Shown piece by piece: positions 3,085 through 22,014 of a stretch of 24,723 nucleotides of DNA; the stretch's first letter is position 1; each line of letters begins with the position of its first letter. This stretch comes from an uncultured virus (IMG/VR IMGVR_UViG_3300023687_000086). Its lineage: Duplodnaviria > Heunggongvirae > Uroviricota > Caudoviricetes. The notes below the pieces were generated by a model. The model saw only the letters and a program-made list of their open reading frames with translations. It did no database searches and was not told where the DNA came from. The stretch lies in IMG/VR virus record IMGVR_UViG_3300023687_000086; one strand, written 5' to 3'. A program made the translations under genes and the position numbers.

Positions 3085-3837
3085 ATGACGGAAACTTTAA
3101 AAACTATTATGAGCACAAGACCTGAGAGCGGAGACGTAAATGAAATGCTTCAGTACAACAATGCATTGTACAGCTTGTTTTTGAATGGTGATCCGGCAGA
3201 CAGAAGGGAGGCCAGGAACGAGCTATTAACATTTAACGAGCGCTATTTTTGGTCGCTTTGCACTACAGGGTCATTTCGAAACATCTGGGTTCAGTATCCA
3301 CTTGCATCCTGTGAAGATGCGGTTGCTACCTTACAGATTGCACTGATTAGTGTGTTGGAAGATGAGATTTATGATAAGTGGGACAAATTGATTTGGCTGA
3401 AAACGATGGACCGTGCAAAAGAGATGATTCACGACCAGTATAATACTGGAGGTGCTGCGGGTTCACTAGTAACCAAGCATAGAATCAGAAACAATGAGAC
3501 AGATAAGGAGATTTCTGTGGTTAATGATTCTGCGCTTGATTACATGGGAGAAGAAAAGGACTCGATTTATGGTTCAACGAATCCATACGATTCACTTGAG
3601 TTAAAGGAAGTGGTCAGAAACTTTTTGCAAGAAGCTGTAGATAAGGAGTTCATTAGAGATTTGGACCGTGAGATCTTATATCTTAGATCATCTGGACTTT
3701 CGCACAAAGATGTCGCAGCAATTCTGAATATAGGCGAAGACAATGAAAGACAGCTTTACAAGAGAACCATCAATAGATGCCGCGCAGCATATAAGTATAG
3801 TGCCGACTTTAAAAACCTCAAAGAATTTGTAGCGTAG
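3085..3837 (+). CDS. Divergent sigma-70 family RNA polymerase sigma factor-like protein
   Basis: Region-2-like segments (DRREARNELLTFNERYFWSL; EDAVATLQIALISVLE) and a region-4 HTH (DREILYLRSSGLSHKDVAAILNIGEDNERQLYKRTINRCR); RBS GAAAGGAG. Confidence 0.72.
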   Translation: MTETLKTIMSTRPESGDVNEMLQYNNALYSLFLNGDPADRREARNELLTFNERYFWSLCTTGSFRNIWVQYPLASCEDAVATLQIALISVLEDEIYDKWDKLIWLKTMDRAKEMIHDQYNTGGAAGSLVTKHRIRNNETDKEISVVNDSALDYMGEEKDSIYGSTNPYDSLELKEVVRNFLQEAVDKEFIRDLDREILYLRSSGLSHKDVAAILNIGEDNERQLYKRTINRCRAAYKYSADFKNLKEFVA

Positions 3838-3936: not shown

Positions 3937-5076
3937 ATGGATTCAAGAAATTATTCTACAAAAAATGAAATCGTAACCCGTAGTGCGGATAAGATTCGTC
4001 CGCATATTAATGGTATGCATATTATCGGCCTGGATATGGGATACTCTGGTCCAAAGTGTTATCACGAGCGCGGAAATTTTGTATTCCCGAACTACTGTAA
4101 GAAGATTACCGGCGAATTGTTTGGTGATTTGAACAGAACAGATATGGTGTACCAGAACATGGATACCAGGGAACGGTATGCAGTTGGCGCTATGGCGTTG
4201 AAGTCATTAAATGACGAAGACGTTGTATCAGAAGATGCCTTATATGGAAGAAACCATTATTTGCATCCGGATTTTAAGGTCGTGTTTGAAAGTTGCCTTG
4301 GTGTTGCGCTTTGGGATATTGATACAGACGGAAGCGATGTATTTTTACAGACGGGCCTTCCGCCGGCGTACATGGTAAAAGACGAACCATATATTCGCAG
4401 CGTCATGGAAGGGGAGCATCACTTCAAGTTGACTATCGGCCCGGAGACAAAGACTTTTCATATTACGCTTTCGAAGCAGAATGTGGATGTTATGAGTCAG
4501 CCAATGGGCACTTTAACTTCACTTCTGTTTGATGACAATGCAAAGCCGACTCCACATGCGATTCCGTTAATGAAGTCGAATCTTTTGGTTTTTGATAGCG
4601 GATTCGGCACATTGGATACATTTTTTATTCGTGCAAACCAGCTCGAGTCGAAAAACACGAATCCGAACCTTGGTATGAAGCGTGTTTTGACTGAAACCAG
4701 GGATTTGATCGCCCAGGACTTAAATGTATCCGTATCAATTCCGGCGATGCAGCGTGTTCTCAGAGACGGTGTTGTTAAGGTTAACGATCTGATGACGCTC
4801 CAGACAAAGGAATATCCGATTGATGACTACCTGGCACAGGCAAACAAGAAGGTATGCATGGAAGCGTTGGAGTCGATCAAAGATTACGTATTTAATATTA
4901 AGTACCTGATCATGACCGGCGGAACATCTGAAGCGTGGATTGATGAGTTCCGGAAGCGGTTGCAGACTACCGGTGTGGAAGTGTTGTCCGGAAAGACCGG
5001 TTCAAATCTTCCAGTAGTCTATGCAAATGCACGTGGATACTATTATTCGAGATTAAAGAAGCTTGGATATAAGTAA
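3937..5076 (+). CDS. parM: ParM/StbA-like actin-family ATPase (plasmid segregation type)
   Basis: Actin-fold motifs IIGLDMGYSGPK (phosphate 1), QTGLP, SQPMG, VFDSGFGTLD (phosphate 2), MTGGTS and ANARGY. Confidence 0.88.
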   Translation: MDSRNYSTKNEIVTRSADKIRPHINGMHIIGLDMGYSGPKCYHERGNFVFPNYCKKITGELFGDLNRTDMVYQNMDTRERYAVGAMALKSLNDEDVVSEDALYGRNHYLHPDFKVVFESCLGVALWDIDTDGSDVFLQTGLPPAYMVKDEPYIRSVMEGEHHFKLTIGPETKTFHITLSKQNVDVMSQPMGTLTSLLFDDNAKPTPHAIPLMKSNLLVFDSGFGTLDTFFIRANQLESKNTNPNLGMKRVLTETRDLIAQDLNVSVSIPAMQRVLRDGVVKVNDLMTLQTKEYPIDDYLAQANKKVCMEALESIKDYVFNIKYLIMTGGTSEAWIDEFRKRLQTTGVEVLSGKTGSNLPVVYANARGYYYSRLKKLGYK

Positions 5077-7109: not shown

Positions 7110-9875
7110 ATGGCAAAAAAGAAAAAGAACCAATCATTTTTAGCCACAGTAAAAAAGACGTTCAAGAATATGAAGTATTGGTATGTAGCCGACGAAAATG
7201 GTCAGATTCAACATACGAAAAGAATCGTGTTTGAAGGCATTGTTTCGTTGCCAATCATCATATTCGAAGGTGTCAAAATCGGCTTCTACGCAAAGGTCGC
7301 CAATTTAAACACAGGGTTTCAGACATTCGCGGAAGGTCTTGTAACTCCAGCCTACAAGGTTCATGCACTTCGTCATGCTAACGATCTTACAGGATTTGGC
7401 AGTGCGTATTATGGATTCGATGCTAGTTATCTTGGCCTAATGTTGCTTGGATTCGCGGTTATTTTTGCATCTTTGTACATGACAGCAGAACGTAATCGTA
7501 ACAAATCGAGCAGAAAAGACGGTAATATGAAGTTCGGTCGAATTTCCGATTTCAATGAACAGATGGCATATTGTGATGAATCTGGAGAGCCGATTGATCC
7601 GCCGGAAAACAGTTACGAGCCAGGTAATATGATCTTGTCACAGAATGTTCGGTATTCCTTGGAACCAAAAGGAACAAATACATATTCAAATGCGCTTGTT
7701 ATTGGTGTAACCGGTTGTGGTAAATCATTTACGTACGTAAAACCAAATGTACTGCAGATGAATTCGTCTTATGTAATCACAGATCCAAAGGGCGAGTTGA
7801 CACATGACCTTGGCGCTGCGCTTATGAGGCATGGATATAGAATCAAGCTTTTTAACTTGAGCGAACAAACAGCATCCTGTAAGTACAATCCGTTCCATTA
7901 TATTCGTTCGGAGGCAGACGTTGTTACCATGGTTAACACGTTCCTCGAAAACACGAAAGAAGAGGATGCCGGCGGCGGAGATCCATTCTTCCCGTTAGCA
8001 GAAAAGAACTTTTACTTAGGCCTTTGCTTCTATATATATACGGTTTATAAGGATCAGCCTGAGAAGCAAACATTTAAGACGCTGTATGAGTTGTATCAGT
8101 CGGCAGACGAGCAGGAGGTTATGCTTAAGAAGGGTGAGGCAGCTCCGGAATCCAAGTTCGATGAAATCTTTAGAGAGCTTGGACAAAAGGATCCAACAAA
8201 TCCGGCGCTCCCATACTATGCAACATTCAAGAAAGGTTCTTCGAAAACGAAGCAGTCTATTCTTACGTCCGTTGGTGTTAAGCTTTGGTTCTTATCCGTA
8301 GGAACAGTAGCAAACCTTCTAAGCGGAGATACGCTGGAACTTGAGAAGCTTGGCGATCGAAAGACGGCATTATTTATCGTAATTCCGTCCGAAGTTAAGA
8401 CTTATAAGTTTTTATCTGCAATTTTGTTTACGCAGCTTTTCGAAACGCTCTATTACGTTGGCAATACGCTTAATGAGAAGAGCTTGTTATTGCAACATGG
8501 TAACTGCGTTGCATTTAGAAGTGATCCGTTTATTCCTGGCACAAAATCTGAAGACGAGGCAAGAGAGGCCATGGAAATCAAACGTGAGCTTTGGAAAAAG
8601 GCTTATATAGAAGACGATAATGAACTTATTGCAACAGATCCGGAAAAAGCTAAATATTTCGATACGCCAAATGAGCGTGGATTTAAGCCCTACCCAACAG
8701 CTAGACTCGTATACAATGATAGCGAGACCGGAGAACGTCGCGTATTAGAGGAGTTCCAATCCAGGGCGGAAGCAGATATGGTATACAAAGCAGTATGCGA
8801 GGGCGAAATTGTACGCGGAAAGAAGTCCTTAGTTAACCACGTGCGATTTATGCTGGATGAGTTCTTCTCACTTGGTAAGATTACAGACTTCGATCTTAAG
8901 ATCGCGACCTTCCGTTCACTTCGTATTTCCTGCGATATCATCGTTCAGTCGATTGCGCAGTTAAAAGAAATGTACGAAGACCGTGAAGCCAAGATTGTAA
9001 ACAACTGTAATGTTCAGATTCTGCTTGGTGCCGCATCAAATGATGATTGTCAGTATTTCAGTGACTTAATGGGTCAGACGACCGTCCGTTCGGAGTCTGC
9101 GTCTGTTGATCATAAAGGATTAATCCAGGGCGTTAGCAATACGAATATTGGAGATGGTGCACAGCTTTTGATGCGTCCGGAAGATATTCGAACTATGAGT
9201 AAGGATAAATGCTTGGTAATCGTCAACACGACAAAGCCACTCATTGATGAGAAGTATTCTTCGTTAGACCATCCTCGCTGGGGCGAAAGCTATTCATCCT
9301 TTGATCCGAACTCTCAGAAGAACGAGTTCCAGTTCCAGAGATTGTTCTATGTGGAGCAGGATGAAGCGAACCGTGTTGTAACGATTTTAAGTTCCATCGG
9401 TCAAACGCCGGCACTTGTTCAAAACGATAACAACAAGTTACCTAAGCGCGAACCAATCAAGGGTAAACGGCCAGATGAACAAGAGAAACGTATCGGAATC
9501 GATCCACATCCAGGACTTAGCCAGGAAGAGCGTCAAAGACGATATGAAAACGAGAAACGCAAGATGACCGCAGCGAATGAAGAAGTCGCAAATAAGAGCG
9601 CTTCTGAAAATATCGAGTCGGGGTTGATGTACAAAGCAAACTCGTTCGGTGAAATTAATATCGCAGAAGTATCAAGTCTTGGTATTGATACAGAAAAAAT
9701 CTTGATTGAAGCTGCAATGGGTAAGGGCGAATGGGAAGTGACTGATGGTGATACACCAGGAACGAAACGTATCCAGCCAACAAGTGACAACGCAATTGCG
9801 AATGCCATTAAAAAGGGAAACGTAAAAAAAGAACAGATTATTACAGACCCAAATGACATGTTTGATCTGTGGTAA
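7110..9875 (+). CDS. virD4: VirD4/TraG-family type IV coupling protein
   Basis: N-terminal TM segments; Walker A GVTGCGKS; YVKPN, TDPKGEL and YNPF; Walker B RFMLDEF; IVQSIAQLKEMY. Confidence 0.93.
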   Translation: MAKKKKNQSFLATVKKTFKNMKYWYVADENGQIQHTKRIVFEGIVSLPIIIFEGVKIGFYAKVANLNTGFQTFAEGLVTPAYKVHALRHANDLTGFGSAYYGFDASYLGLMLLGFAVIFASLYMTAERNRNKSSRKDGNMKFGRISDFNEQMAYCDESGEPIDPPENSYEPGNMILSQNVRYSLEPKGTNTYSNALVIGVTGCGKSFTYVKPNVLQMNSSYVITDPKGELTHDLGAALMRHGYRIKLFNLSEQTASCKYNPFHYIRSEADVVTMVNTFLENTKEEDAGGGDPFFPLAEKNFYLGLCFYIYTVYKDQPEKQTFKTLYELYQSADEQEVMLKKGEAAPESKFDEIFRELGQKDPTNPALPYYATFKKGSSKTKQSILTSVGVKLWFLSVGTVANLLSGDTLELEKLGDRKTALFIVIPSEVKTYKFLSAILFTQLFETLYYVGNTLNEKSLLLQHGNCVAFRSDPFIPGTKSEDEAREAMEIKRELWKKAYIEDDNELIATDPEKAKYFDTPNERGFKPYPTARLVYNDSETGERRVLEEFQSRAEADMVYKAVCEGEIVRGKKSLVNHVRFMLDEFFSLGKITDFDLKIATFRSLRISCDIIVQSIAQLKEMYEDREAKIVNNCNVQILLGAASNDDCQYFSDLMGQTTVRSESASVDHKGLIQGVSNTNIGDGAQLLMRPEDIRTMSKDKCLVIVNTTKPLIDEKYSSLDHPRWGESYSSFDPNSQKNEFQFQRLFYVEQDEANRVVTILSSIGQTPALVQNDNNKLPKREPIKGKRPDEQEKRIGIDPHPGLSQEERQRRYENEKRKMTAANEEVANKSASENIESGLMYKANSFGEINIAEVSSLGIDTEKILIEAAMGKGEWEVTDGDTPGTKRIQPTSDNAIANAIKKGNVKKEQIITDPNDMFDLW

Positions 9876-10351: not shown

Positions 10352-11083
10352 ATGAATGTATCAAGTCTTATGATTCTACTACTTGATATCGGAAAAGGAA
10401 TCACATCAAATGTCGATCCAACGGATGCAACGAGCGGTATTAATAAGTTCTTGATAAACTGTGGAACGGCGGTGGGAGCAATTCTCATCGCTGTTGCTAC
10501 ACTAAAAATGATAATTGCGTTAGCCGAAGAAAGTGTTGCAGAACGCCAAAAGGCGTCTTTACTCTTTGGCGTGGGAATTGTGTTCGTTAGTGTAGAAGCA
10601 GTGGTAAAGACACTTCTTGGGCCTAAAGGCTCGATTACAGAAGCGACCGGTTACATTACCGTGGCGCAAAATGTGCTATCTGTAATTGGTAGTATGGCGA
10701 GTTGGGCCGGAGCAATCATGATTATATTTGCGGTTTATTCTTTTATTCTCGCGATTGCACAAGAATCAGTAGAATCTCAAACAAAAGCAACAAATGCATC
10801 CTTGGTTGGAATTGGGTTCGTATCACTCCATTTCGTATGCGATGCATTAAAAAATAAGATTAGTTCAAAAGAGCCAACATCGTTCGTTACCGTAATCACT
10901 GGATGGTTGGGAAGTATAGCATCATACGGAGGCGCAATATTACTTGTGATGGCTATCTTTAGAATGATTATATCCATTCGCACAGAAGACCTCAAAGAGC
11001 GTAACGATGCAATTAAGCTGATGATGGTTTCAATAGCGTTGATTAGTTTCAAGTCTGTAATAAAAGCGTTTGGAATCGGTTAG
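10352..11083 (+). CDS. Membrane protein built of three tandem VirB2-like helical hairpin repeats
   Basis: Three GAI-hydrophobic-charged loop-hydrophobic units; the third aligns closely with 10008..10337. Confidence 0.7.
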   Translation: MNVSSLMILLLDIGKGITSNVDPTDATSGINKFLINCGTAVGAILIAVATLKMIIALAEESVAERQKASLLFGVGIVFVSVEAVVKTLLGPKGSITEATGYITVAQNVLSVIGSMASWAGAIMIIFAVYSFILAIAQESVESQTKATNASLVGIGFVSLHFVCDALKNKISSKEPTSFVTVITGWLGSIASYGGAILLVMAIFRMIISIRTEDLKERNDAIKLMMVSIALISFKSVIKAFGIG

Positions 11084-11098
11084 AAAGGAGGGAACAGT

Positions 11099-11938
11099 TT
11101 GTCTAACATTATTTTCCTGAAAATGTTTACAACGTGGATCGACGATTTGATGATAAAGTGGTCTGCTGGAATCTTAGATGCTAGTTTAGGTCAAGGCCAA
11201 ATGGAATCTGTAAAAAAGATTATATCTTTCGTAGGCCCAGGAGATTATTATTCTCAGTTTTGGAGTATTGTGAATGTTGCGTTAAAAGCTGTAAGACCAT
11301 TTGGATTTGCAATCATAACAACATACTTCTTGATGTTTTTATTTGATGCTGCAGCAAAAGATAACGTTACTGTAGATTCATTGATAAAGGTACTAATTCA
11401 ATTGGTACTTGTTATTGCAATGATAAAGAACCTGGATTTGATAATAAATTCATTCCTATCATTAAATGAAACATTGATTGCCAAAATGGGAAACATTGGC
11501 CCCAAGTCGGCATCAGTTGAAATCAAGGGAACAGATTTCGTAAACGAATGGTATGATGCCGGAACAAATGTATTTGTAATATGGATACAGTGTGTAGTGA
11601 TTTGGCTCATACATCAGATCGCTGTTATTGCTGTCGATTTTGCAATCATTCAAAGAGCAATTGAAATCGGTTGGAGAAGTGTATTTGCACCAATCGGAGT
11701 TGCTAACTGTTTCGAAGGTGGAGCAAATAGCGCTGGTATCCGATATTTAAAAACGTTGTTTACCGTAATCATGTCTGGAGCCGCAATTTATCTTACGGCA
11801 GCATTGGGATTCTCAATTACGGCCGGTATGCTTAAATCAGCAACAAGCAGTACAATTTGGATTGCAGTGGCATCAATGTTGGGTACAGCTGGTGCAGCAA
11901 TTGGCGTCGGAAATAAGATACGAGATGTCGCACAATAA
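11099..11938 (+). CDS. VirB6-like polytopic T4SS membrane protein
   Basis: Multiple TM segments; RAIEIGWRSVFAPIGVA...GIRYLK pattern typical of Firmicute VirB6-like proteins; TTG start with a strong RBS; synteny. Confidence 0.78.
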   Translation: MSNIIFLKMFTTWIDDLMIKWSAGILDASLGQGQMESVKKIISFVGPGDYYSQFWSIVNVALKAVRPFGFAIITTYFLMFLFDAAAKDNVTVDSLIKVLIQLVLVIAMIKNLDLIINSFLSLNETLIAKMGNIGPKSASVEIKGTDFVNEWYDAGTNVFVIWIQCVVIWLIHQIAVIAVDFAIIQRAIEIGWRSVFAPIGVANCFEGGANSAGIRYLKTLFTVIMSGAAIYLTAALGFSITAGMLKSATSSTIWIAVASMLGTAGAAIGVGNKIRDVAQ

Positions 11939-11958
11939 TATAAAAGAAAGGAATCAAT

Positions 11959-12468
11959 ATGGCTATTTCTAAACCTACACCAAAGGATGTTGGTACATAT
12001 GAAGCGAAAATGGTTGGCCCGTTTACGAAGCGACAAGTCATATGCATTGGAGCTGGAGCACTGCCAACGGTTATCATTTCATCGTTTTTAAATGCACTTA
12101 ATATCGATGGATATTCAATCGCAGCGGTAGCAATCATGCTTATGATTATCCCGTGTTTCTTCGCGTTTGGCTCCGTATTGTGTTACGGCCAAAAACCGGA
12201 AGATTTTTTAATCGAATATTATCAGTATCACTTAAAATCCAAAAAAGTGCGATTATACGAAACCAGCACTTTGGACGATAAACTTGATATTGTTCGAAAG
12301 AAAGAATTAAAGAAGCAAGAAGAGGAAATGGAATTGGATCCTAAGCAAAAGAAACCGAAGGAACCTAAAAAGGATAAGAACGTTGTCACTACAAAGACAA
12401 AGTTCCAGGATCCAAGATTTACACCGAAGCCACACAAAGTTTCGAAAGAATATAAAAGTTTTTCGTAG
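11959..12468 (+). CDS. prgI: PrgI-family (VirB3-like) conjugation membrane protein
   Basis: PKDVGTYEAKMVGPFTKRQVIC N-terminus, two TM helices, GQKPEDF and a basic tail. Confidence 0.85.
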   Translation: MAISKPTPKDVGTYEAKMVGPFTKRQVICIGAGALPTVIISSFLNALNIDGYSIAAVAIMLMIIPCFFAFGSVLCYGQKPEDFLIEYYQYHLKSKKVRLYETSTLDDKLDIVRKKELKKQEEEMELDPKQKKPKEPKKDKNVVTTKTKFQDPRFTPKPHKVSKEYKSFS

Positions 12469-12540
12469 AACTTAAAACCTTTTTGTAAAAGGAGTCGTCT
12501 TTTAGATAGCTAATATATCAAGACAGGTTAAATACGTTTT

Positions 12541-12590
12541 TGTGAGAATCGAATTATTTTGTCACAAATCGAGTCACAATGATACGTATT
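12541..12590 (+). promoter_or_regulatory. Class II promoter-like motif with TGTGA-N16-TCACA palindrome
   Basis: TGTGA(12541)...TTTGTCACAAA-TCGAGTCAC-AATGATACGTATT. Confidence 0.7.
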
Positions 12591-12636
12591 AATATTGTAA
12601 ACGGATAACACAGACCGTTTCAAGCACATTACAAAA

Positions 12637-12686
12637 TGTGAAAACTTAAAAAGTTTGTCACAAAACGACCTGTAATGATACGTATT
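12637..12686 (+). promoter_or_regulatory. Class II promoter-like motif with TGTGA-N16-TCACA palindrome
   Basis: TGTGA(12637)...TTTGTCACAAA-ACGACCTGT-AATGATACGTATT. Confidence 0.7.
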
Positions 12687-12690
12687 AGTA

Positions 12691-12956
12691 TTGTAATCGC
12701 AAAAGAGACTCCTTTCATTTTGTTATATAGCGATTACAAAAATAAAGATCCGAGATCAATTCTCCTTTCATGATACACAACACTCGGATCGGGGGTGAAT
12801 GGCGCAGTAATATGCGAATCGTTGCAATGGGCAACGAGATGGTTCGAATCCATCACATCTCTTCAATTGACGAATAGTTTGTCTCCTTTCACCGAAGCCA
12901 TGGCGGCTCGAAAGGGTCCGAATCCCTTTCTTCGGTTTCGAGATGCAAAATCTCAC
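12691..12956 (+). ncRNA. Candidate structured ncRNA with three anti-SD motifs and two tRNA-like modules
   Basis: Consecutive hairpins start right after a class II motif; CTCCTTTCA occurs three times; T-arm loops TTCGAAT and TCCGAAT. Confidence 0.55.
12791..12865 (+). tRNA. Atypical tRNA-like cloverleaf (pseudo-tRNA or mimic; no assignable anticodon)
   Basis: Acceptor-like GGGGGTG/CATCTCT; D-like CGCA-GTAATA-TGCG; 7-bp arm TCGTTGC-AATGG-GCAACGA; perfect T arm GATGG-TTCGAAT-CCATC; ends in TCA. Confidence 0.5.
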
Positions 12957-13053
12957 ATAGGTTTAAAACCTTTTGGACGAATTAGTCGTCCTATATTTAG
13001 AAACGAAAAACACAGTATTTAGAATGAAAGTTCTAAATGGGAAGGAGAAATAT

Positions 13054-13791
13054 ATGAGAAAAAGAATGGTAACAAAATTTATGGCACTTGCAGCGGTTGC
13101 AATGGTTGGTACGGGGATGATGGCTCCGGTTATGGCTCATGCGGAGGAGATTCAGGATGCGCCGACTAATGAAGTATCTAGTACGCCTGAATACGTTGTA
13201 ACAGATGAAAAGACACCAATCGAAGAATCAATTAGACGCTCGGAAGAGATAGCATTCGCTGCAAGAGATAGACGGTTAGCCGAGGAAGCAGCTGCTAGAC
13301 AGGCAGCAACTTCTACGTCAACGCAAACATCATCTCCGGCTCCCGAGCAGGCACCAGCATCTGTTTCGGAACAGGCGCCAGCACCTGTTCCGACACCGAC
13401 TCCGAGCGTGGTAGAGAATACAACAACCGAAGAGCCGAAGGTTGAAGTTCCTAAGAAGAGCGTTGCTTCTTCGGATGATAAGGTTAAGGCCGAGGTAAAG
13501 ACCGAGAATGAGGTGAAAGATGATGAGACAGAAACTAATGTTGAGTTTGAATCTGAATCCGAGAAAAAGGTTGATGAGGCTGTTTCTGCGGCAAGAAGAG
13601 CGAATGATAAGATCAAGGCAAATGCTGAAGCATTAACAAAGATCGTTGAAGACGAACCAACAGGTATGGAAGCTGTTGTCGTAACATTAAAGACCACCGT
13701 TGGTAATGGAGTGGCGGCTGTCCAGACTTTCTTTGGTAATGTTGCTGATGGAATTCAGGGATTGTTCGAAGGTTTCGTTTCATTGTTTTAA
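13054..13791 (+). CDS. Exported low-complexity protein (Ala/Pro/Thr/Glu-rich) with an amphipathic C-terminus
   Basis: GAAGGAG RBS before ATG 13054 (ORF track starts at 12973); signal peptide ending PVMAHA-EE. Confidence 0.8.
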   Translation: MRKRMVTKFMALAAVAMVGTGMMAPVMAHAEEIQDAPTNEVSSTPEYVVTDEKTPIEESIRRSEEIAFAARDRRLAEEAAARQAATSTSTQTSSPAPEQAPASVSEQAPAPVPTPTPSVVENTTTEEPKVEVPKKSVASSDDKVKAEVKTENEVKDDETETNVEFESESEKKVDEAVSAARRANDKIKANAEALTKIVEDEPTGMEAVVVTLKTTVGNGVAAVQTFFGNVADGIQGLFEGFVSLF

Positions 13792-13798
13792 TAATCAT

Positions 13799-13832
13799 AA
13801 GGAAGTACCGCAAAGGTGCTTCCTTTTTTTTT
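13799..13832 (+). terminator. Intrinsic terminator
   Basis: AAGGAAGTACC-GCAAA-GGTGCTTCCTT followed by a T run. Confidence 0.85.
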
Positions 13833-13834
13833 AT

Positions 13835-13859
13835 TTTGCAAGTATTCTGCTCATATTTA
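13835..13859 (+). promoter_or_regulatory. Class I promoter-like motif
   Basis: TTTGCAAGTATTCTGCTCATATTTA. Confidence 0.55.
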
Positions 13860-13881
13860 ATAAAAATATAAGGAGGATCAA

Positions 13882-15659
13882 ATGCATCTAAGAAAGAAAA
13901 TTGGATTACTCTCCATGTTACTCATGATGGCGTGTGCATCAATACCGGCACATGCTGATACAACAAAAGAACCATGGACAAAATCCGAAACTCAAACTCA
14001 AAATCTTAGAATTCGAGACATTACAACGAATGGGGTTCATGCGCAGCGAGTGTATAACGATGGTCAGGTCATGTTGTATATACGTATACGCACGATGTTA
14101 CATACGTGATTGATAATGGAACCGAATATAAGAAGGAAATCGAAAATAATACGAATGGTATTGTGCAGGCACCGGTAGCTTCAAAACCCGGATGGACATT
14201 TGTTGGTTGGAAAACAGATCGCAGCCCAGATGGTTCGATTTTATATAATCATACGGTAAAGTCGACCACGACGTATTATGCCGTTTATAAACGGACCGTA
14301 ACAGTGTCTGCTTATGGTGGTGACGCGACAACTAACAACTTGGGCGTACAGTATTACAATAGCGGAAGCATTTCGACTGTTAATATTAAGCTCGAAAATC
14401 AGCCAACAAAAGCTGGATGGCAACTAATCGGCTATAAGAATTGGTCAGATGAGGCTGCAAATGAAAAATGTGCATATGTCCCAGGAGATACGGTTCAAGT
14501 AAAAGAGGATATGAAGCTTCGGGCAGTCTTTAAGAAAAAAGTAACCGTGACGTCTGTGACTGGTAATAATCATGTAAAGCAAACGAGCTTTTCTGGATGG
14601 CGGTATTATAATAATGGGACAATAAAGAATCCGATAATTAACCTTATTCCAGAAAAACTAAACGGATGGAATTTTTATACTTTTGCAGAAAAGCCAAAAG
14701 ATACAATACCCAAATATCAGAACCGGGGATATGAATTTTCCACTGATACTAACATTTATCCGGTGTATCGTAGAGAATCAGCAATTTCTTATGATTGTGA
14801 TGGTGGACAATTATACGGAACCGCAAATGTAGATTATTCTGTTAATGTAGCATGGTTCTATGCTCCTGGTGACAATTTGACATTATTTGGCGGAGCAAAT
14901 GTTAAAATGTCAAAGAACGCTAAAAATACCGGATGGGAACAAGCGAATTATATAGTACAATTTAACAATGAAAAACATGGCAGCGTAGGTAATGGTTGGA
15001 CCGGACAAACGACGAACAACGTATCGTGGGGCGGATTTCCTTCGGTTTGGACAAACGGCTGTTATGCCGGCACTGCCTCTATATCCGCTGCATGGCCTGA
15101 GCACCTTATTGAAGACACAAACAATTATGATCAGTCAAAACTCGAATGGGAAACACCTAGATATATTAGCGGACCATTGACAACAAAAGTTGGAAAGTGG
15201 GGTGATGCAGACACCGATTGTCATACTAGTAGTATGAAATATAATAAAACTCCTTCGATTCATCCACGTGATTTTGTGGGAGACCAATGTTGGATCTTGG
15301 TGTACGGGAAAACAGAAAACGGAGTTTGGACGCAAATCGGTCAGTGGGCATGCAATACTAGCGAATCTCTAATATACAGACCAGAAAACGATAGCAATTC
15401 GTTATGGCCAGTTTCGATTAACATCCAAGATGGGTGGTATCGTGGAATTAGAATAGTCGCAACCGGTTCAGCAGCATATATTCCATATCATAATAACATG
15501 AAGGATCCAATGGTGTATGAATTAACCATATGTGAGGGAGCTGGATGCTCAGGCGGGACTCATAATGGTTGGGGACCTTCGTATATGCGTTTTACATTAG
15601 GACTCTTGCCGCTCGGTCCAAAAGGAATAGCGTTTGATGTAAATGGGTTACCAAGATAA
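13882..15659 (+). pseudogene. Frameshifted secreted surface protein with Listeria-Bacteroides/InlB-B-like repeats (ORFs 13882..14109 + 14106..15659)
   Basis: RBS and signal peptide (PAHA-DT) are in the first ORF; repeats KPGWTFVGW, KAGWQLIGY and LNGWNFYTF are in the second. Removing one GGTCA of the duplication at 14062-14071 fuses them into 590 aa. Confidence 0.8.
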
Positions 15660-15663
15660 TAAT

Positions 15664-15696
15664 AAAAAAGGCTCGTTCTACGCGGGTCTTTTTTTT
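15664..15696 (+). terminator. Intrinsic terminator
   Basis: AAGGCTCGT-TCTAC-GCGGGTCTT followed by a T run. Confidence 0.75.
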
Positions 15697-15697
15697 G

Positions 15698-15722
15698 TTC
15701 CCAAATTTTAGATTCATATTTT
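15698..15722 (+). promoter_or_regulatory. Class I promoter-like motif
   Basis: TTCCCAAATTTTAGATTCATATTTT. Confidence 0.65.
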
Positions 15723-15762
15723 ATTACGTAACTCAAAATTAGAAAAATCATGGAGGAATATT

Positions 15763-17436
15763 ATGAATTTGAAAGAGTTTAAAGAACGTGTTACGACTGA
15801 TAAAAACACGTTGAAGGAGAAGTGGGACGGTAACACACCGGTGAAAAAAGCACTGATCATTGCCGGTATTATTATCATTATCCTGCTTAGTATTTTTGGG
15901 GTCGTATTCGTCGGCGCTAGAAATTCGGTCGGAGTTATGACCAGGGAAGTGGCAAATGCCGAAATTTACGGTGCCACAAAAGCGTATCTACAGAACCGTG
16001 TAGAGGCAATCGCAAAAGAGGAGCTTAATAATCAGATCTTTGATGATGGTACGAAGCTTAGCGACAAGGAGATTACATCCTTATCCGCATCTATTTCTAA
16101 CACAGTAAACAACCTGTTGGAGACGATTGACATGGAGTCTGTCAATACGGATGACCTTACCAAGATGGTAAAGGAACGCGTTGCGAAGGAACTTAAGTCT
16201 AACAACACCGTAACTGAAAAGATGACTGAGAAGGAAATCATTAAGTTATCTACCACGATTGCGGAACGTACGACTGATGGCTTGGATCAGCAGATTAATG
16301 CATTGGATTTAGTGTCCAATACGTATCTCTTGCAGGAACTTATCAATAAGAACAAGTCCATTAGTGCAGCAGATAAGGAAGAGCTGCTTAAGCTGATCGA
16401 AGAACTTCGTAACGCTAACAACACGAACGCAACCGATCTGACAGATGCGTACAACAAGCTCATGAAGAAGATTAACGAGTTGGACCTTAATACTACAAAG
16501 ACATTCGTAGAGGTTACTAACAACCTCACTGAGAATGTTAATAAACAGGTTCAGTATCTGGAAAAGAAGATTACAGATTTGAACGATAAGCTGGAAAAGG
16601 AAGTAAAGGAACTTACTGAGCGTATCGAGAAAGATGAGAACCTTTCTAAGGAGCAGAAGGAAGAACTCATTAAGATGATTGAGCAGCTTCGCATGGATTC
16701 TGATCAAAGCGACGAGGAAATTCTTCAGAAGCTGGACGACACGAAGAACAACCTTATGGCTTATATCGAGGCTATTAAGAATACTATCTGGGCACGCCTT
16801 GGAAACGCAACCGAGTCTATGACTGAGAAGGTTATGGAAAGTAATAATATTACTGATGAGCAGAAGACAGAATTGGTTGATCTTATTGCAGCCGTAAAGG
16901 ACGCTTCGGCAGCCACTACATCGAATAATGACGTGGATAAGGAACACCTGAACGAATCCGTCGAAGCGCTGCACGAGTACATTGACAATAATCTTTCTGA
17001 TGAAGCGAAGAAAGAACTTAATAGTGATTACGAGACCGTATCCATGACCGTATCTGATCAGCTCGTATATCTGGAGGACGAAATCGACGCGAAGGAAGCT
17101 GCGATTTACGATTCTTTAAATGAAAACGTACAGGAACTGTATGAAACCATTGACGAAGTCTCCAATGAACTGCAGACAAACATCAATAACAATTATGATG
17201 CATTAAAGGCATACACGGATGAGGCTGCAAGACTGGCGGATGAGAATGCAAAGAACTACGCAAACAACGCCTATAACACATCTGTAGACTATACCAATAC
17301 AGTTGTTGGTGGTAAATTCGTAACACTTCGTTCCCAGATGGATTATAACAACCTGGTCAATACCGGTTCTGGAACCGACATTAACGGAAATCCAATCAAG
17401 TACGATGCTACGACATATTACTTTGTTGCAGAGTAA
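15763..17436 (+). CDS. Membrane-anchored long coiled-coil (fibre/stalk-like) protein
   Basis: Single N-terminal TM helix; about 450 aa of heptad-rich acidic helix; AYTD/NYAN/DYTN motifs and a small C-terminal domain; GGAGG RBS. Confidence 0.75.
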   Translation: MNLKEFKERVTTDKNTLKEKWDGNTPVKKALIIAGIIIIILLSIFGVVFVGARNSVGVMTREVANAEIYGATKAYLQNRVEAIAKEELNNQIFDDGTKLSDKEITSLSASISNTVNNLLETIDMESVNTDDLTKMVKERVAKELKSNNTVTEKMTEKEIIKLSTTIAERTTDGLDQQINALDLVSNTYLLQELINKNKSISAADKEELLKLIEELRNANNTNATDLTDAYNKLMKKINELDLNTTKTFVEVTNNLTENVNKQVQYLEKKITDLNDKLEKEVKELTERIEKDENLSKEQKEELIKMIEQLRMDSDQSDEEILQKLDDTKNNLMAYIEAIKNTIWARLGNATESMTEKVMESNNITDEQKTELVDLIAAVKDASAATTSNNDVDKEHLNESVEALHEYIDNNLSDEAKKELNSDYETVSMTVSDQLVYLEDEIDAKEAAIYDSLNENVQELYETIDEVSNELQTNINNNYDALKAYTDEAARLADENAKNYANNAYNTSVDYTNTVVGGKFVTLRSQMDYNNLVNTGSGTDINGNPIKYDATTYYFVAE

Positions 17437-17534: not shown

Positions 17535-20000
17535 TTGAGTAAGAAAACTGAAACTAAAAAGAAGCCCACTAAGAAGAAGCAGACAAAAGTCGAAGCTTCT
17601 GTAATGGGTAAGCTTTCAAAGGCCCAGCAAAAGGCCATGAAGAGTATCCAGGACTCGATTCCATTTGTGCGAGTATATGAAGATGGCGGAGATAAAAACC
17701 CGTGTACCGGTGTTATTGAGGTACAGGACGGTGTATTCACCAAGTCTTATGTCATTAACGACACGAATTACTCGGATGCTGGAGAAGAAAAACAGGAAGT
17801 GATTCTGGAGATCTTTAAGAAAATTTTGACTGGTTTTAATTCCGATTGCGGATATGAAATCACGATTAACAATCGCACGGTGGATCAGAAGGAATTTAAT
17901 AACAAGGTGCTCATGCCTTATGCGAACGATGATTACGATATGTTCCGTATGCAGCACAACGAGTTGGTCATTGATATGATGCAGCAGGGTAAGAACAACC
18001 TCCGTTCTGAGAAATATTTAACCATCACTGTTAACGAGGAAAGCATTGAAGCGGCATTATCAAAGTTCGTAACAATCGAGCGAGACATTAACCGCGAGAT
18101 GAAGAAGATCAATAATATTGGTCTTGAGGTTATTTCGTTGGAAGACCGTTTGGAAATCTTGCATGATATCTATAATGGTAACAAGGTTGGTAATTTCAAG
18201 CAGGTATTCAATCTGGATGCTATTGTTGCGCAGGGCATTTCAGTGAAGGATATTATTGGACCAACTGTTATGGATTTCTCGAAGACAGACTACTTTGTCA
18301 TGGATGAGCGATACGTAAGATCGTTTTTCCTGAAGAATATCCCATCGAGATTGTCTTCCACATTGCTTGAGAATTTATCCAATATTTCTGCGAATAGCTT
18401 AATCTCGGTTCACTATGAGATTCAACCGCAGGATAAAGCTGCTGAATTTGCATCGGCACAGGTTACCAATATCGGTGGTGAAGTTGTAAAAGCTCAAAAG
18501 GCTCTCACCAAGGCCGGCGCGTCTCCGGATCTGATTTCTCCGAAGCTTGCAACGGCTAGAGATGATGCATCCAGATTGTTAGCTCAGCTTACTGAAGGAA
18601 ACGAAAACTTGTTCCATGTAACTATCGCTGCTACTGTATTTGCTGATAATAAGGATGACTTAGATACTGTTACGAATCAGATTATGACAAGAGCTAGAGA
18701 GCAGCTTTGCACACTTGATACGTTAAAGGCGCAGCAGGAGCAAGGCTTTGATACATGCTTGCCATTGGGATTAAACCTGATTCATACACATCGCGTATTA
18801 CCTACGGATTCCGTATCTGCGATCCAACCATTTAGTACGCAGGAGTTGCAGATAAAAAATGGTTTCTATTACGGTCTGAACCAGTTATCAAAGAATATTA
18901 TTGTTTACAACCGAGGTATTTCGAATAACCAGAACGGTGTTATCTTGGGTGCACCTGGTGCCGGAAAATCATTCGCTGCTAAGATGGAGATGTATCAGGC
19001 TTATTTGAATACGCGTAACTCTCAGATCTTCATTATCGATCCGGAGCGAGAGTATGTAGGACTTGGTAACGCACTCAATGCAACCGTATTCCGTATTATG
19101 CCTGGTGGTACTACATTTATTAATCCATTGGATTTGGACATTTCTAGAGATGACGAGGGCGGCGATCCATTCGCTGAAAAGGTCGATTTCATTATTTCGA
19201 TTGTTGAGGCAATGCTTGGTGGCCGGAACACCTTAAACGGTTATTTGAAGAGCATTATCGATAACACGCTTCAGAATCTTTACGCGCCTTATTTGCAGCA
19301 GATTGAAAAGCAAGGCAAGACAATCGATACAGAGATCTGCCCTACTTTAAAGGATTTCTATGATGCCTTAATCGCCCGCAAGGAGCCGGAAGCAAAGAAC
19401 TTGGCCGCTGCTATCCAGATGTATTGCGTTGGTTCGTTGAACCTGTTTGCACATCGCACCAATATCGATACAGATAATCGTATGGTTATCTATGATACCA
19501 AGAATATTGGAACCAACTTAAAGGAACTTGGTATGCAGATTTGCTTGAACGATATCTGGAACCGAATGCTCGCAAACCGTAAGAGAAATGTTCGTACATG
19601 GTTCTATATCGATGAGTTCTATTTGTTGCTTCATCAGAAGTCCTCTGCAGAGTACCTGCAGATGGTATGGAAACGTGCCCGTAAGTGGATGGGTTCTCCA
19701 ACTGGAATCACACAGAACGTATCCGATTTGCTGGCATCCGAAGAAGGTAATACCATCCTTAAAACGTCCGATTTTGCACTATTGTTGAGTCAGTCGTTCC
19801 AGGATCGAATTGCATTGGCCGAAATTTATCAGCTGTCGGAAGAGCAGCAGGGTTATATCAATAATACATCGTCTGCCGGCGAAGGCTTAATTTATACGGC
19901 CCGATCTGTGGTTCCATTTGAGAATCATATTCCGCAAACCAGCGAAATCTACAAGCTGTTATCAACGAAAGCCGAAGATGCAGAAAACTTGAAAAAGTAG
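17535..20000 (+). CDS. virB4: VirB4-family conjugative transfer ATPase
   Basis: YYGLNQLS; Walker A GAPGAGKS; IIDPEREY; FINPLD; Walker B WFYIDEFY; KRARKW; GITQNVSD; TTG start with an AAGGAGG RBS. Confidence 0.95.
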   Translation: MSKKTETKKKPTKKKQTKVEASVMGKLSKAQQKAMKSIQDSIPFVRVYEDGGDKNPCTGVIEVQDGVFTKSYVINDTNYSDAGEEKQEVILEIFKKILTGFNSDCGYEITINNRTVDQKEFNNKVLMPYANDDYDMFRMQHNELVIDMMQQGKNNLRSEKYLTITVNEESIEAALSKFVTIERDINREMKKINNIGLEVISLEDRLEILHDIYNGNKVGNFKQVFNLDAIVAQGISVKDIIGPTVMDFSKTDYFVMDERYVRSFFLKNIPSRLSSTLLENLSNISANSLISVHYEIQPQDKAAEFASAQVTNIGGEVVKAQKALTKAGASPDLISPKLATARDDASRLLAQLTEGNENLFHVTIAATVFADNKDDLDTVTNQIMTRAREQLCTLDTLKAQQEQGFDTCLPLGLNLIHTHRVLPTDSVSAIQPFSTQELQIKNGFYYGLNQLSKNIIVYNRGISNNQNGVILGAPGAGKSFAAKMEMYQAYLNTRNSQIFIIDPEREYVGLGNALNATVFRIMPGGTTFINPLDLDISRDDEGGDPFAEKVDFIISIVEAMLGGRNTLNGYLKSIIDNTLQNLYAPYLQQIEKQGKTIDTEICPTLKDFYDALIARKEPEAKNLAAAIQMYCVGSLNLFAHRTNIDTDNRMVIYDTKNIGTNLKELGMQICLNDIWNRMLANRKRNVRTWFYIDEFYLLLHQKSSAEYLQMVWKRARKWMGSPTGITQNVSDLLASEEGNTILKTSDFALLLSQSFQDRIALAEIYQLSEEQQGYINNTSSAGEGLIYTARSVVPFENHIPQTSEIYKLLSTKAEDAENLKK

Positions 20001-20038: not shown

Positions 20039-20088
20039 TGTGAAAAATGGATTATTTTGTCACAAAACGATTTTTAATGATACGTATT
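20039..20088 (+). promoter_or_regulatory. Class II promoter-like motif with TGTGA-N16-TCACA palindrome
   Basis: TGTGA(20039)...TTTGTCACAAA-ACGATTTTT-AATGATACGTATT. Confidence 0.7.
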
Positions 20089-20194
20089 ATATATGTATAA
20101 AACTATCGGACGCAAATTAGCGTCATAGATGTAGACAATATTGACGAACGAACCGTTCGTATGAAATAATGGTTCATCATGAAAGGAGTAAAAA

Positions 20195-21959: not shown

Positions 21960-21992
21960 TTTGTCACAAAACATGTCCAAATGATACGTATT
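21960..21992 (+). promoter_or_regulatory. Class II promoter-like motif (lacks the upstream TGTGA half-site)
   Basis: TTTGTCACAAA-ACATGTCCA-AATGATACGTATT. Confidence 0.7.
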
Positions 21993-22014
21993 GTAGTTAG
22001 AAAGGATTAAAAAT

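Follow-up and report, generated by a model that had tools for sequence, protein, structure and literature searches.

Three exact copies of a 16S rRNA tail sequence are found in the non-coding region upstream of the gene at 13054, together with two hairpins and two tRNA-like modules, in a stretch that is partly represented in RNA libraries. The feature is real, expressed and unusual in the combination of its parts, but it is a singleton, and the mechanism that would explain it by default, masking of a Shine-Dalgarno sequence (SD) in cis, is an ordinary one. The reading that we favour, with just under even confidence and on the basis of structure modelling, is that the 13054 module has an anti-SD leader which works in cis, and not as a global silencer; tRNA-processing enzymes might sever this leader at the tRNA-like modules. 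The initial annotation had described the same region as a candidate small RNA, acting in trans as a translational repressor or as a ribosome mimic.

The window, i.e. the whole stretch of 24,723 nucleotides that was analysed, is a conjugative element of the Clostridia/Firmicutes type, from gut bacteria. Transfer genes on the + strand include those for a VirD4-like coupling protein (7110-9875), for a PrgI-family protein (11959-12468), the upstream neighbour of the leader, and for a VirB4-like ATPase (17535-20000), downstream of the inserted genes. An actin-like partition protein and two XRE-type regulators are further encoded, along with a divergent sigma-70/ECF-like protein at 3085-3837 (TIGR02937, E 3.9e-6, below the family cut-off). 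The interval from PrgI to VirB4 is composed of a 585-nt non-coding stretch and four genes (13054-17436). The feature region contains no coding sequence; its two neighbouring genes, like all flanking transfer genes, are on the + strand. The product of the 13054 gene (13054-13791, +) has 245 aa, with an N-terminal signal peptide followed by an acidic body of low complexity; after the gene comes what reads, in the sequence, as a terminator made of a hairpin and a T-run (about 13801-13832).

A promoter-like motif is found five times in the window, and three of these copies immediately precede the feature. Its sequence, TTTGTCACAAA-N10-AATGATACGTATT, can be read at 12558, 12654 and 20056, and at 21960 with two changes; TGTGA stands before most copies, generating the pattern TGTGA-N16-TCACA. 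A degenerate fifth copy (c0, 12482-12516, +) is in register with the other four, and TTTGT..A.A...GATA..TA.T is invariant in all five when they are aligned. The copy c1 (12541-12590, +) reads TGTGA-N16-TCACAAA..AATGATACGTATT and is part of repeat D1; c2 (12637-12686, +) is the second full copy. The 20056 copy (c3) is located after the VirB4 terminator and before gene 20195, and the 21960 copy (c4) leaves 21 nt between its end and the ATG of gene 22015, which means that the motif must itself contain the promoter. By analogy with c4, whose SD must lie in the transcript, transcription from c2 would start at about 12691-12692, at the first base of hairpin 1. For its transcription, the element appears to rely on a sigma-like factor and a promoter family of its own.

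The 9-mer CTCCTTTCA is found on the + strand at 12709-12717, 12762-12770 and 12883-12891, at the sites originally annotated; these are its sole + strand copies in 24.7 kb. When both strands are counted, five copies are present, against 0.27 expected, and at least five were obtained in none of 100 shuffles. The two - strand copies are the reverse complements of the + strand ribosome binding sites (RBSs) of the 3085 and 20195 genes. Of the 7-mer CTCCTTT, the + strand of the 24,723 bases has three copies, all inside the feature, and the - strand has nine. An 8-nt core, CTCCTTTC, is identical to part of the 16S rRNA 3' tail (...GGATCACCTCCTTTCT) of a Lachnospiraceae genome, L017, which was reached via a related locus and served as the source of the compared tail: the likeness to a Firmicute 16S tail, already proposed, is borne out by this match. 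The flank GATCA of copy 2 also agrees with the L017 tail, with two additional bases intervening.

Copies 1 and 2 are located in the apical loops of two hairpins, where the loop motif is CUCCUUUCA. Hairpin 1 (12691-12739, +) features a 10-bp outer stem, formed by TTGTAATCGC (12691-12700) and GCGATTACAA (12730-12739), a bulge on the 3' side, a short inner stem and an apical loop with copy 1; hairpin 2 (12747-12790, +) features an 8-bp outer stem, formed by GATCCGAG (12747-12754) and CTCGGATC (12783-12790), a 3'-side bulge, a 4-bp inner stem and a 12-nt loop with copy 2. The outer arms pair, in both cases, as first reported. The two hairpins share a two-tier build: outer stem, 7-8-nt bulge on the 3' side, inner stem and a loop of 12-13 nt containing the motif. 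Hairpin 1 has a folding energy of -11.3 kcal/mol (z -3.86), equalled by none of 200 shuffles, and hairpin 2 of -10.1 kcal/mol (z -2.59; 4 of 200 shuffles); taken together (12691-12790), they give a z of -3.54, with 0 of 200 shuffles. A diverged version of hairpin 1 follows c1 (12595-12633); it has lost the motif, which there reads GACCGTTTCA. In RNAs that do not include the downstream gene start, the predicted unpaired probability is 0.73 for copy 1, 0.92-0.95 for copy 2 and 0.34-0.67 for copy 3.

Copy 3 (12883-12891, +) lies in the linker between the two tRNA-like modules, in agreement with the earlier description, 1-2 bases before module 2. Module 1 (12791-12865, +) begins at the base directly after hairpin 2. 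Its minimum free energy (MFE) structure is a cloverleaf, which accounts for 49% of the ensemble (z -2.92; 1 of 200 shuffles) and includes a 7-bp acceptor-like stem, a 4-bp D-like arm, a 7-bp arm with a 5-nt loop and no variable region. The T arm, GATGG-TTCGAAT-CCATC, is perfect, with GGTTCGAATCC at 12841-12851; the anticodon-like arm is abnormal, with its 7-bp stem and 5-nt loop, where a canonical tRNA has a 7-nt loop. Module 2 (12892-12940, +) consists of a closing stem and a 7-bp T-arm-like hairpin with the loop TCCGAAT, which scores as terminator-like in the scan; it shares 82% identity with the T-arm region of module 1 (repeat D6), and its folding is not above that of shuffles (z -1.03; 31 of 200).

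None of the Rfam 15 families reaches its gathering score anywhere in the window, and none fits the feature. The best sub-threshold hit is that of module 1 to tRNA-Sec, with 16.7 bits against a gathering score of 47. ARAGORN reports no tRNA genes by default and calls module 1 only at -ps80; on these grounds, and because of the abnormal anticodon arm, a tRNA gene was rejected. A permuted tmRNA with a 24-aa tag, called by ARAGORN at -ps70, and other low-threshold calls were also rejected, as threshold artefacts.

Non-canonical cloverleafs are known from plant mitochondria, where the ends of t-elements fall on mRNA termini generated by RNase P and RNase Z, and where the T-arm motif GGTTCRANYCC served to find such elements (PMC1920247). 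Module 1 combines this motif with a non-canonical cloverleaf; in module 2 the motif is present with one mismatch (GGTCCGAATCC). RNase P is also described as processing RNAs other than tRNA, including the phage antisense C4 RNA and some mRNAs (PMC11143913). In the leader, module 1 follows hairpin 2 without a gap (12790/12791), and module 2, from 12892/3 on, follows copy 3, whose last base is 12891. The modules thus directly abut the anti-SD elements, and could provide cutting signals for RNase P/Z, in the manner of the mitochondrial t-elements.

Part of the interval 12300-13300 was present in 22 sequencing runs, 7 of them from RNA; three RNA runs and one DNA run were compared over 11500-14500, all contigs showing 100% identity. 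RNA contigs cover 12536-12825 and 13087-13796 in run X8, 12641-12817 and 13026-13344 in X10, and 12540-12793 in X12; a single contig spans 12675-13138 in the DNA run, X9, which also has contigs where the promoter motif alone is shared. The leader is therefore covered in all three compared RNA runs, and the 13054 gene in two of them, by contigs that are unstranded. It follows that motif copies 1 and 2 and both hairpins are present in RNA libraries from three samples. That the region is expressed is supported to this extent. The contigs give neither strand, ends nor levels, and their depths (21.7 and 18; 4.3 and 2.5) allow no expression ranking. In the three RNA runs no contig is found over 11500-12535, 12826-13025 and 13797-14500, missing contig cover being no evidence in itself; leader and gene are both represented in X8 and X10, and no RNA contig joins them. 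Two contigs begin at 12536 and 12540, about 16-20 nt after the start inferred for c0 and upstream of those inferred for c1 and c2: either c0 or read-through feeds some of the transcripts, or the start estimates are wrong. The contig ends at 12793, 12817 and 12825 may be compared with the start of module 1 at 12791, bearing in mind that contigs cannot map termini. The stops at 12817 and 12825, which come from two studies and show no loose end, where the DNA contig continues, hint weakly that the RNA has a 3' boundary within module 1.

The SD region of the 13054 gene, GGAAGGAGAA (13040-13049, +), is the predicted partner of copy 2 or copy 3. In the MFE structure of 12685-13060, positions 12760-12769 pair with 13040-13049 over 10 bp; the + strand folds with a z of -4.35, not reached by any of 100 shuffles. 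All pairing reported here is thermodynamic prediction, which considers neither pseudoknots nor kinetics. When the leader is extended to 13075, the SD is predicted to be 98-99% paired, about 0.8 of the pairing going to copy 2 and about 0.16 to copy 3; copy 3 takes about 1.0 of it once copies 1 and 2 are cut away. The predicted unpaired probability of the SD is 0.01-0.02 in all four leaders containing at least one anti-SD copy (starts 12691-12865), and 0.26-0.95 in all six shorter leaders, starting at or after 12893. Masking to the same degree was obtained in 5 of 150 dinucleotide-shuffled leaders (shuffle median 0.33).

On this basis, the promoter copies, the leader with its tRNA-like modules, the secreted-protein gene 13054-13791 and the terminator may form a self-contained expression module, placed between the PrgI-family and VirB4 genes. 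The three 16S-tail copies would act mainly in cis, pairing with GGAAGGAGAA, so that the mRNA would stay untranslated. If tRNA-processing enzymes cut at these modules (5' side, RNase P; 3' side, RNase Z), the anti-SD part could be removed; the SD would be unmasked, and a stable two-hairpin RNA would be left from the 5' portion. We infer, in this model, the strand and the start of the RNA, the linkage of leader to gene, the cis effect on translation and the processing.

Several observations argue for the cis model. The gene's own SD is the nearest and thermodynamically favoured partner of the motifs, on the same strand; the gene has its own terminator, and promoter-like copies lie directly upstream of the leader; the neighbours are on the + strand throughout, and a sigma-70/ECF-like protein is encoded by the element itself. 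T-arm motif and cloverleaf of module 1 match the traits of t-elements cut by RNase P/Z, and both leader and gene are found among the compared RNA runs. Other observations fit it less well. None of the unstranded RNA contigs spans leader and gene, and the contig starts, upstream of those expected from c1 and c2, make the promoter assignment incomplete. Three copies, two of them in the loops of stable hairpins, exceed what a single SD needs, and recall the layout of known trans-acting anti-SD sRNAs; terminator-like hairpins at 12910-12930 and 12975-12991, between the motifs and the gene, could mark the end of a separate sRNA. The masking of the SD is only modestly rarer than expected by chance, the paralogue of hairpin 1 after c1 does without the motif, the tRNA-likeness of module 1 is weak and module 2 is no better than shuffles.

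A separate sRNA of about 100-290 nt, released from the leader by termination or processing and repressing in trans the GAAAGGAG-type RBSs of the element (3085, 6245, 20195) or of host genes, is unlikely in our estimate, and yet is compatible with the cis model, since a released 5' RNA could serve such a role. Its two loop motifs are predicted to be unpaired, with probabilities of 0.73 and 0.93 in RNAs of the extent of the contigs, as expected from their reported position in loops; the two-tier architecture is common to both hairpins, and the contig stops at 12817/12825 hint, weakly, at a 3' end. Tandem hairpins with anti-SD loops are an established sRNA design in the cuckoo RNAs (PMC4615179), and pairing to a translation initiation region has a precedent in NfeR1 (PMC10746234). 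The exact complementarity originally indicated, 10 nt to the 3085 RBS and 10 nt to the 6245 RBS, holds, and that to the 20195 RBS, given as 11 nt, even reaches 13 nt (12762-12774 against 20176-20188). However, GAAAGG is part of the SD in 10 of the 26 window genes, and GAAAGGAG in 5 of the 26: the complementarity is therefore to the ordinary SD of the element, and bears no specific address. By our own estimate (p about 0.1-0.2), the 13-nt match is within chance, given the shared 9-mer, as are the other extensions past it; no target-specific complementarity beyond the generic SD was found, and the leader's own downstream SD pairs about equally well (10 bp). That the RNA would specifically regulate the sigma-like gene or host translation is thus unsupported. 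Moreover, no convincing intrinsic terminator is available, both candidates having weak T tails; no homologues were found in the collections searched, and the contigs are unstranded, with undefined ends. Of the trans repressor or ribosome mimic first proposed, the motifs stand, as real, non-random and predicted to be open in their loops; the specific targets do not, and the downstream SD had been overlooked. RNAduplex energies of the whole 202-nt RNA against initiation regions were discarded, being inflated by large internal loops. A decidedly improbable combination of both modes would have host RNase P/Z cut the two tRNA mimics, as punctuation within an mRNA leader, unmasking the RBS of a strongly expressed secreted transfer protein and, in the same step, leaving a stable two-hairpin RNA that exposes two 16S-tail copies and titrates the GAAAGGAG-type RBSs of the sigma-like regulator and of the 20195 operon; if true, it would be a built-in timer, coupling mRNA processing to a translational feedback loop.

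A structured leader serving mRNA stability or processing only, with the anti-SD motifs as by-products of duplicated and inverted promoter/RBS modules, is improbable, even if the region is indeed a patchwork of repeats (D1, D2, D6, I3). Among the intergenic repeats are D1 (79 nt, 72%), D2 (38 nt, 74%), the T arms of D6 (82%), I3, I4 (hairpin 1) and, in all, 12 inverted-repeat pairs; in I3, the stretch 12488-12507, with an orphan SD-like AAAGGAGTC, is an inverted copy of 12696-12715, which contains motif 1. The motif-less paralogous hairpin linked to c1 also favours a by-product, as does D2b (12963-13000, +), which repeats 12472-12509 (D2, 74%), forms the hairpin GGACGAATTAGTCGTCC and resembles, as judged by eye, the leader hairpin after c3 (about 20108-20125). 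Since D2b is like the ordinary c3 leader, 12691-12962 looks like a block inserted between a promoter and a standard leader. Neutral duplication, on the other hand, would hardly centre two motifs in the apical loops of different stems, nor does it account for three exact 9-mers on a strand otherwise lacking the 7-mer in 24.7 kb, or for an SD masking predicted to be stronger than in 145 of 150 shuffles.

GGA is the binding motif of CsrA-type proteins, and a function on the minus strand could be that of an antisense RNA with the loop UGAAAGGAG, an SD-like or GGA decoy for ribosomes or for a CsrA-type protein, or that of RBSs or starts of tiny ORFs. We regard it as highly improbable. The contigs, being unstranded, would accommodate it; the minus strand folds better than shuffles (z -3.07, 0 of 100), the reversed motifs read (A/G)TGAAAGGAG, from which MKG peptides of 29, 18 and 9 aa could be initiated, and of the 6 sigma-70-like hexamer sites of the promoter scan 4 are on this strand. 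Such sites are, however, barely enriched (6 against 3.1 expected), no terminator-like site was found by the scan on the minus strand, and the MKG ORFs have no SD of their own. When the motifs are taken as RBSs, the ORFs behind them measure only 5, 14 and 37 aa, the last with an ATT start, so that no credible minus-strand gene uses them, as already noted in the initial annotation. GGA is partly paired in the minus-strand fold of hairpin 1, the polarity of the T arm (GGTTCGAATCC) fits the + strand, and no CsrA family was found among the 27 proteins scanned. A site acting as DNA (origin of transfer; single-strand initiation site or promoter; recombination site, by way of the inverted repeats and the tRNA-like sequence) is hardly credible here. 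The 12 inverted-repeat pairs do lie inside a T4SS gene cluster, and tRNA-like sequence, typical of integration sites, is part of the feature; against this, the scan of 27 proteins gave neither a relaxase nor an integrase family, the location is mid-operon and the three identical 16S-tail copies are left unexplained. Nor did any real tRNA match the tRNA-like part: when the intergenic DNA was compared with 401 Lachnospiraceae-family genomes, among the matches listed with loci (8 of 10) none overlaps 12791-12940.

The nearest described design is that of the cuckoo, or alpha-r14, sRNAs, which consist of 2-4 adjacent hairpins, each with CCUCCUCCC in its loop (PMC4615179). The leader resembles them (CcsR, NfeR1) in showing the same anti-SD-type motif in each of its adjacent hairpins, and with two of these (12691-12739 and 12747-12790) it falls within their number. 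It differs in the loop, CCUCCUCCC there and CUCCUUUCA here, and in context: they are chromosomal, stand-alone genes of Alphaproteobacteria, and here a Clostridia-type conjugative element carries the RNA in a leader, next to tRNA-like modules. The RNA does not belong to their family. Cis anti-SD leaders belong to the general class of SD-sequestering 5' UTRs. Like them, the region features an upstream, pyrimidine-rich copy of the 16S tail, predicted to pair with its own SD; unlike them, it carries this copy in triplicate, 165-345 nt upstream, and presents two of the three in apical loops, with no visible ligand, temperature or leader-peptide logic.

The likeness to plant-mitochondrial t-elements (PMC1920247) lies in the non-canonical cloverleaf with GGTTCRANYCC, here embedded in a predicted mRNA leader. 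This one belongs, in contrast, to a bacterial mobile element, and the contig ends are not all at 12790/12791. C4 antisense RNA, in phages P1/P7, is cut from the leader of the operon that it represses, and masks a downstream RBS. It is also an RNA of a mobile element with an RNase P-substrate precursor (PMC11143913). In sequence and structure, however, it is unrelated to this leader. RNAIII and RsaE of S. aureus pair with SD regions through C/U-rich loop motifs; such motifs are shared, but the motif here is a different one, without an Rfam match and not in a stand-alone gene.

Little is known of how Gram-positive and Clostridial conjugation is regulated in gut bacteria. The combination of 16S-tail mimics with tRNA-shaped modules would compactly couple the translation of a transfer protein to the tRNA-processing machinery of the host; were its 5' portion to act in trans as well, a multi-hairpin design of anti-SD sRNAs that has until now been described in Alphaproteobacteria would extend to mobile elements of Firmicutes. 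As a counterweight, this is a single locus, with no relatives in the collections searched, and its default cis mechanism is ordinary. A full-text literature search retrieved no paper on an anti-SD or tRNA-like leader in a conjugative element, a result from which no claim of absence is made.

No match was obtained by blastn of 12400-13100 against plasmids. The PrgI protein had none among metagenome contigs, nor had the 13054 and sigma-like proteins among viral contigs; the promoter pattern was found 0 times in the metagenome and 0 times in the viral contigs. The intergenic DNA gave short hits in 10 of the 401 Lachnospiraceae-family genomes, at E 6e-4 or weaker; the best-looking of the intergenic matches, at L007, is an ordinary RBS region read backwards, and was rejected. 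The promoter pattern, with up to 3 mismatches, occurs in 3 of the 401 genomes, against 5 hits of the reversed control, i.e. at chance level. Clusters of anti-SD sequences in distant loci were likewise discarded, as ordinary minus-strand RBSs only (L003 4898). The closest VirB4 relatives, from 185,579 species genomes, are found at 5 loci and show 36-45% identity, those on plasmids being below 60%; neither the promoter motif nor the T-arm motif is present at any of the five. In one of the relatives, L001, VirB4 directly follows a PrgI-like ORF: the leader and the four genes that separate the two in the window are therefore an inserted block.

The promoter-like copies and the leader region carrying the three anti-Shine-Dalgarno motifs are flanked by a 38-nt direct repeat (74%), with copies at 12472-12509 and 12963-13000. 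The second copy contains a hairpin, GGACG..AATTAG..CGTC, found again at about 20100-20130, after c3, the promoter-like copy preceding gene 20195. The recurrence of this hairpin, together with the bracketing repeat, suggests that the block 12691-12962 is an insert into a standard promoter-leader unit.

Five promoter-like sites, following the pattern TGTGA-N16-TCACAAA-N10-AATGATACGTATT, are present in the window: 12482-12516, 12541-12590, 12637-12686, 20039-20088 and 21960-21993. One of them is degenerate, and another is devoid of the upstream half-site. Their reader is probably the divergent sigma-70/ECF-like protein encoded by the element (3085-3837). The palindromic upstream half is a possible binding site for either of the two XRE-type regulators, which are encoded on the minus strand at 1815-2577. 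Run X9, a DNA metagenome, contains three or more further contigs that match the promoter motif only (aligned to 12638-12699), with 3-7 differences per ~50 nt and unlike sequence beyond; relatives of the promoter family are therefore present in that sample.

Gene 20195 is the first gene downstream of c3. The complementarity of its RBS to the anti-Shine-Dalgarno motif, proposed in the initial annotation, was found again and is longer than reported there: the loop and inner stem of the second hairpin (12762-12774) pair perfectly, over 13 nt, with 20176-20188. Given the common 9-mer, a match of this length is within chance.

In L001 (7404-7848), a distantly related locus, the VirB4 gene directly follows a PrgI-like ORF. 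In the window, by contrast, about 5 kb (12469-17436) separate the PrgI-family gene from VirB4; this inserted block consists of the leader and of four genes with secreted or surface-type products. One of these is monocistronic and occupies 13054-13838 together with its own terminator; nearly the whole gene lies within an RNA-library contig (13087-13796). Its 245-aa product features a signal peptide, a body that is acidic and rich in Pro, Ala and Glu, and a C-terminus of hydrophobic character. None of the Pfam or NCBIfam families matched this protein at the family cut-off.

Elsewhere on the element, 10352-11083 weakly matches, below cut-off (E 7.7e-5), the Mbov_0395 family of pilin-like conjugal transfer proteins. 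The co-occurrence of a GGDEF diguanylate cyclase gene (636-1484) and an actin-like (ALP/ParM-type) partition gene (3937-5076) suggests that the element is a plasmid and not integrated.
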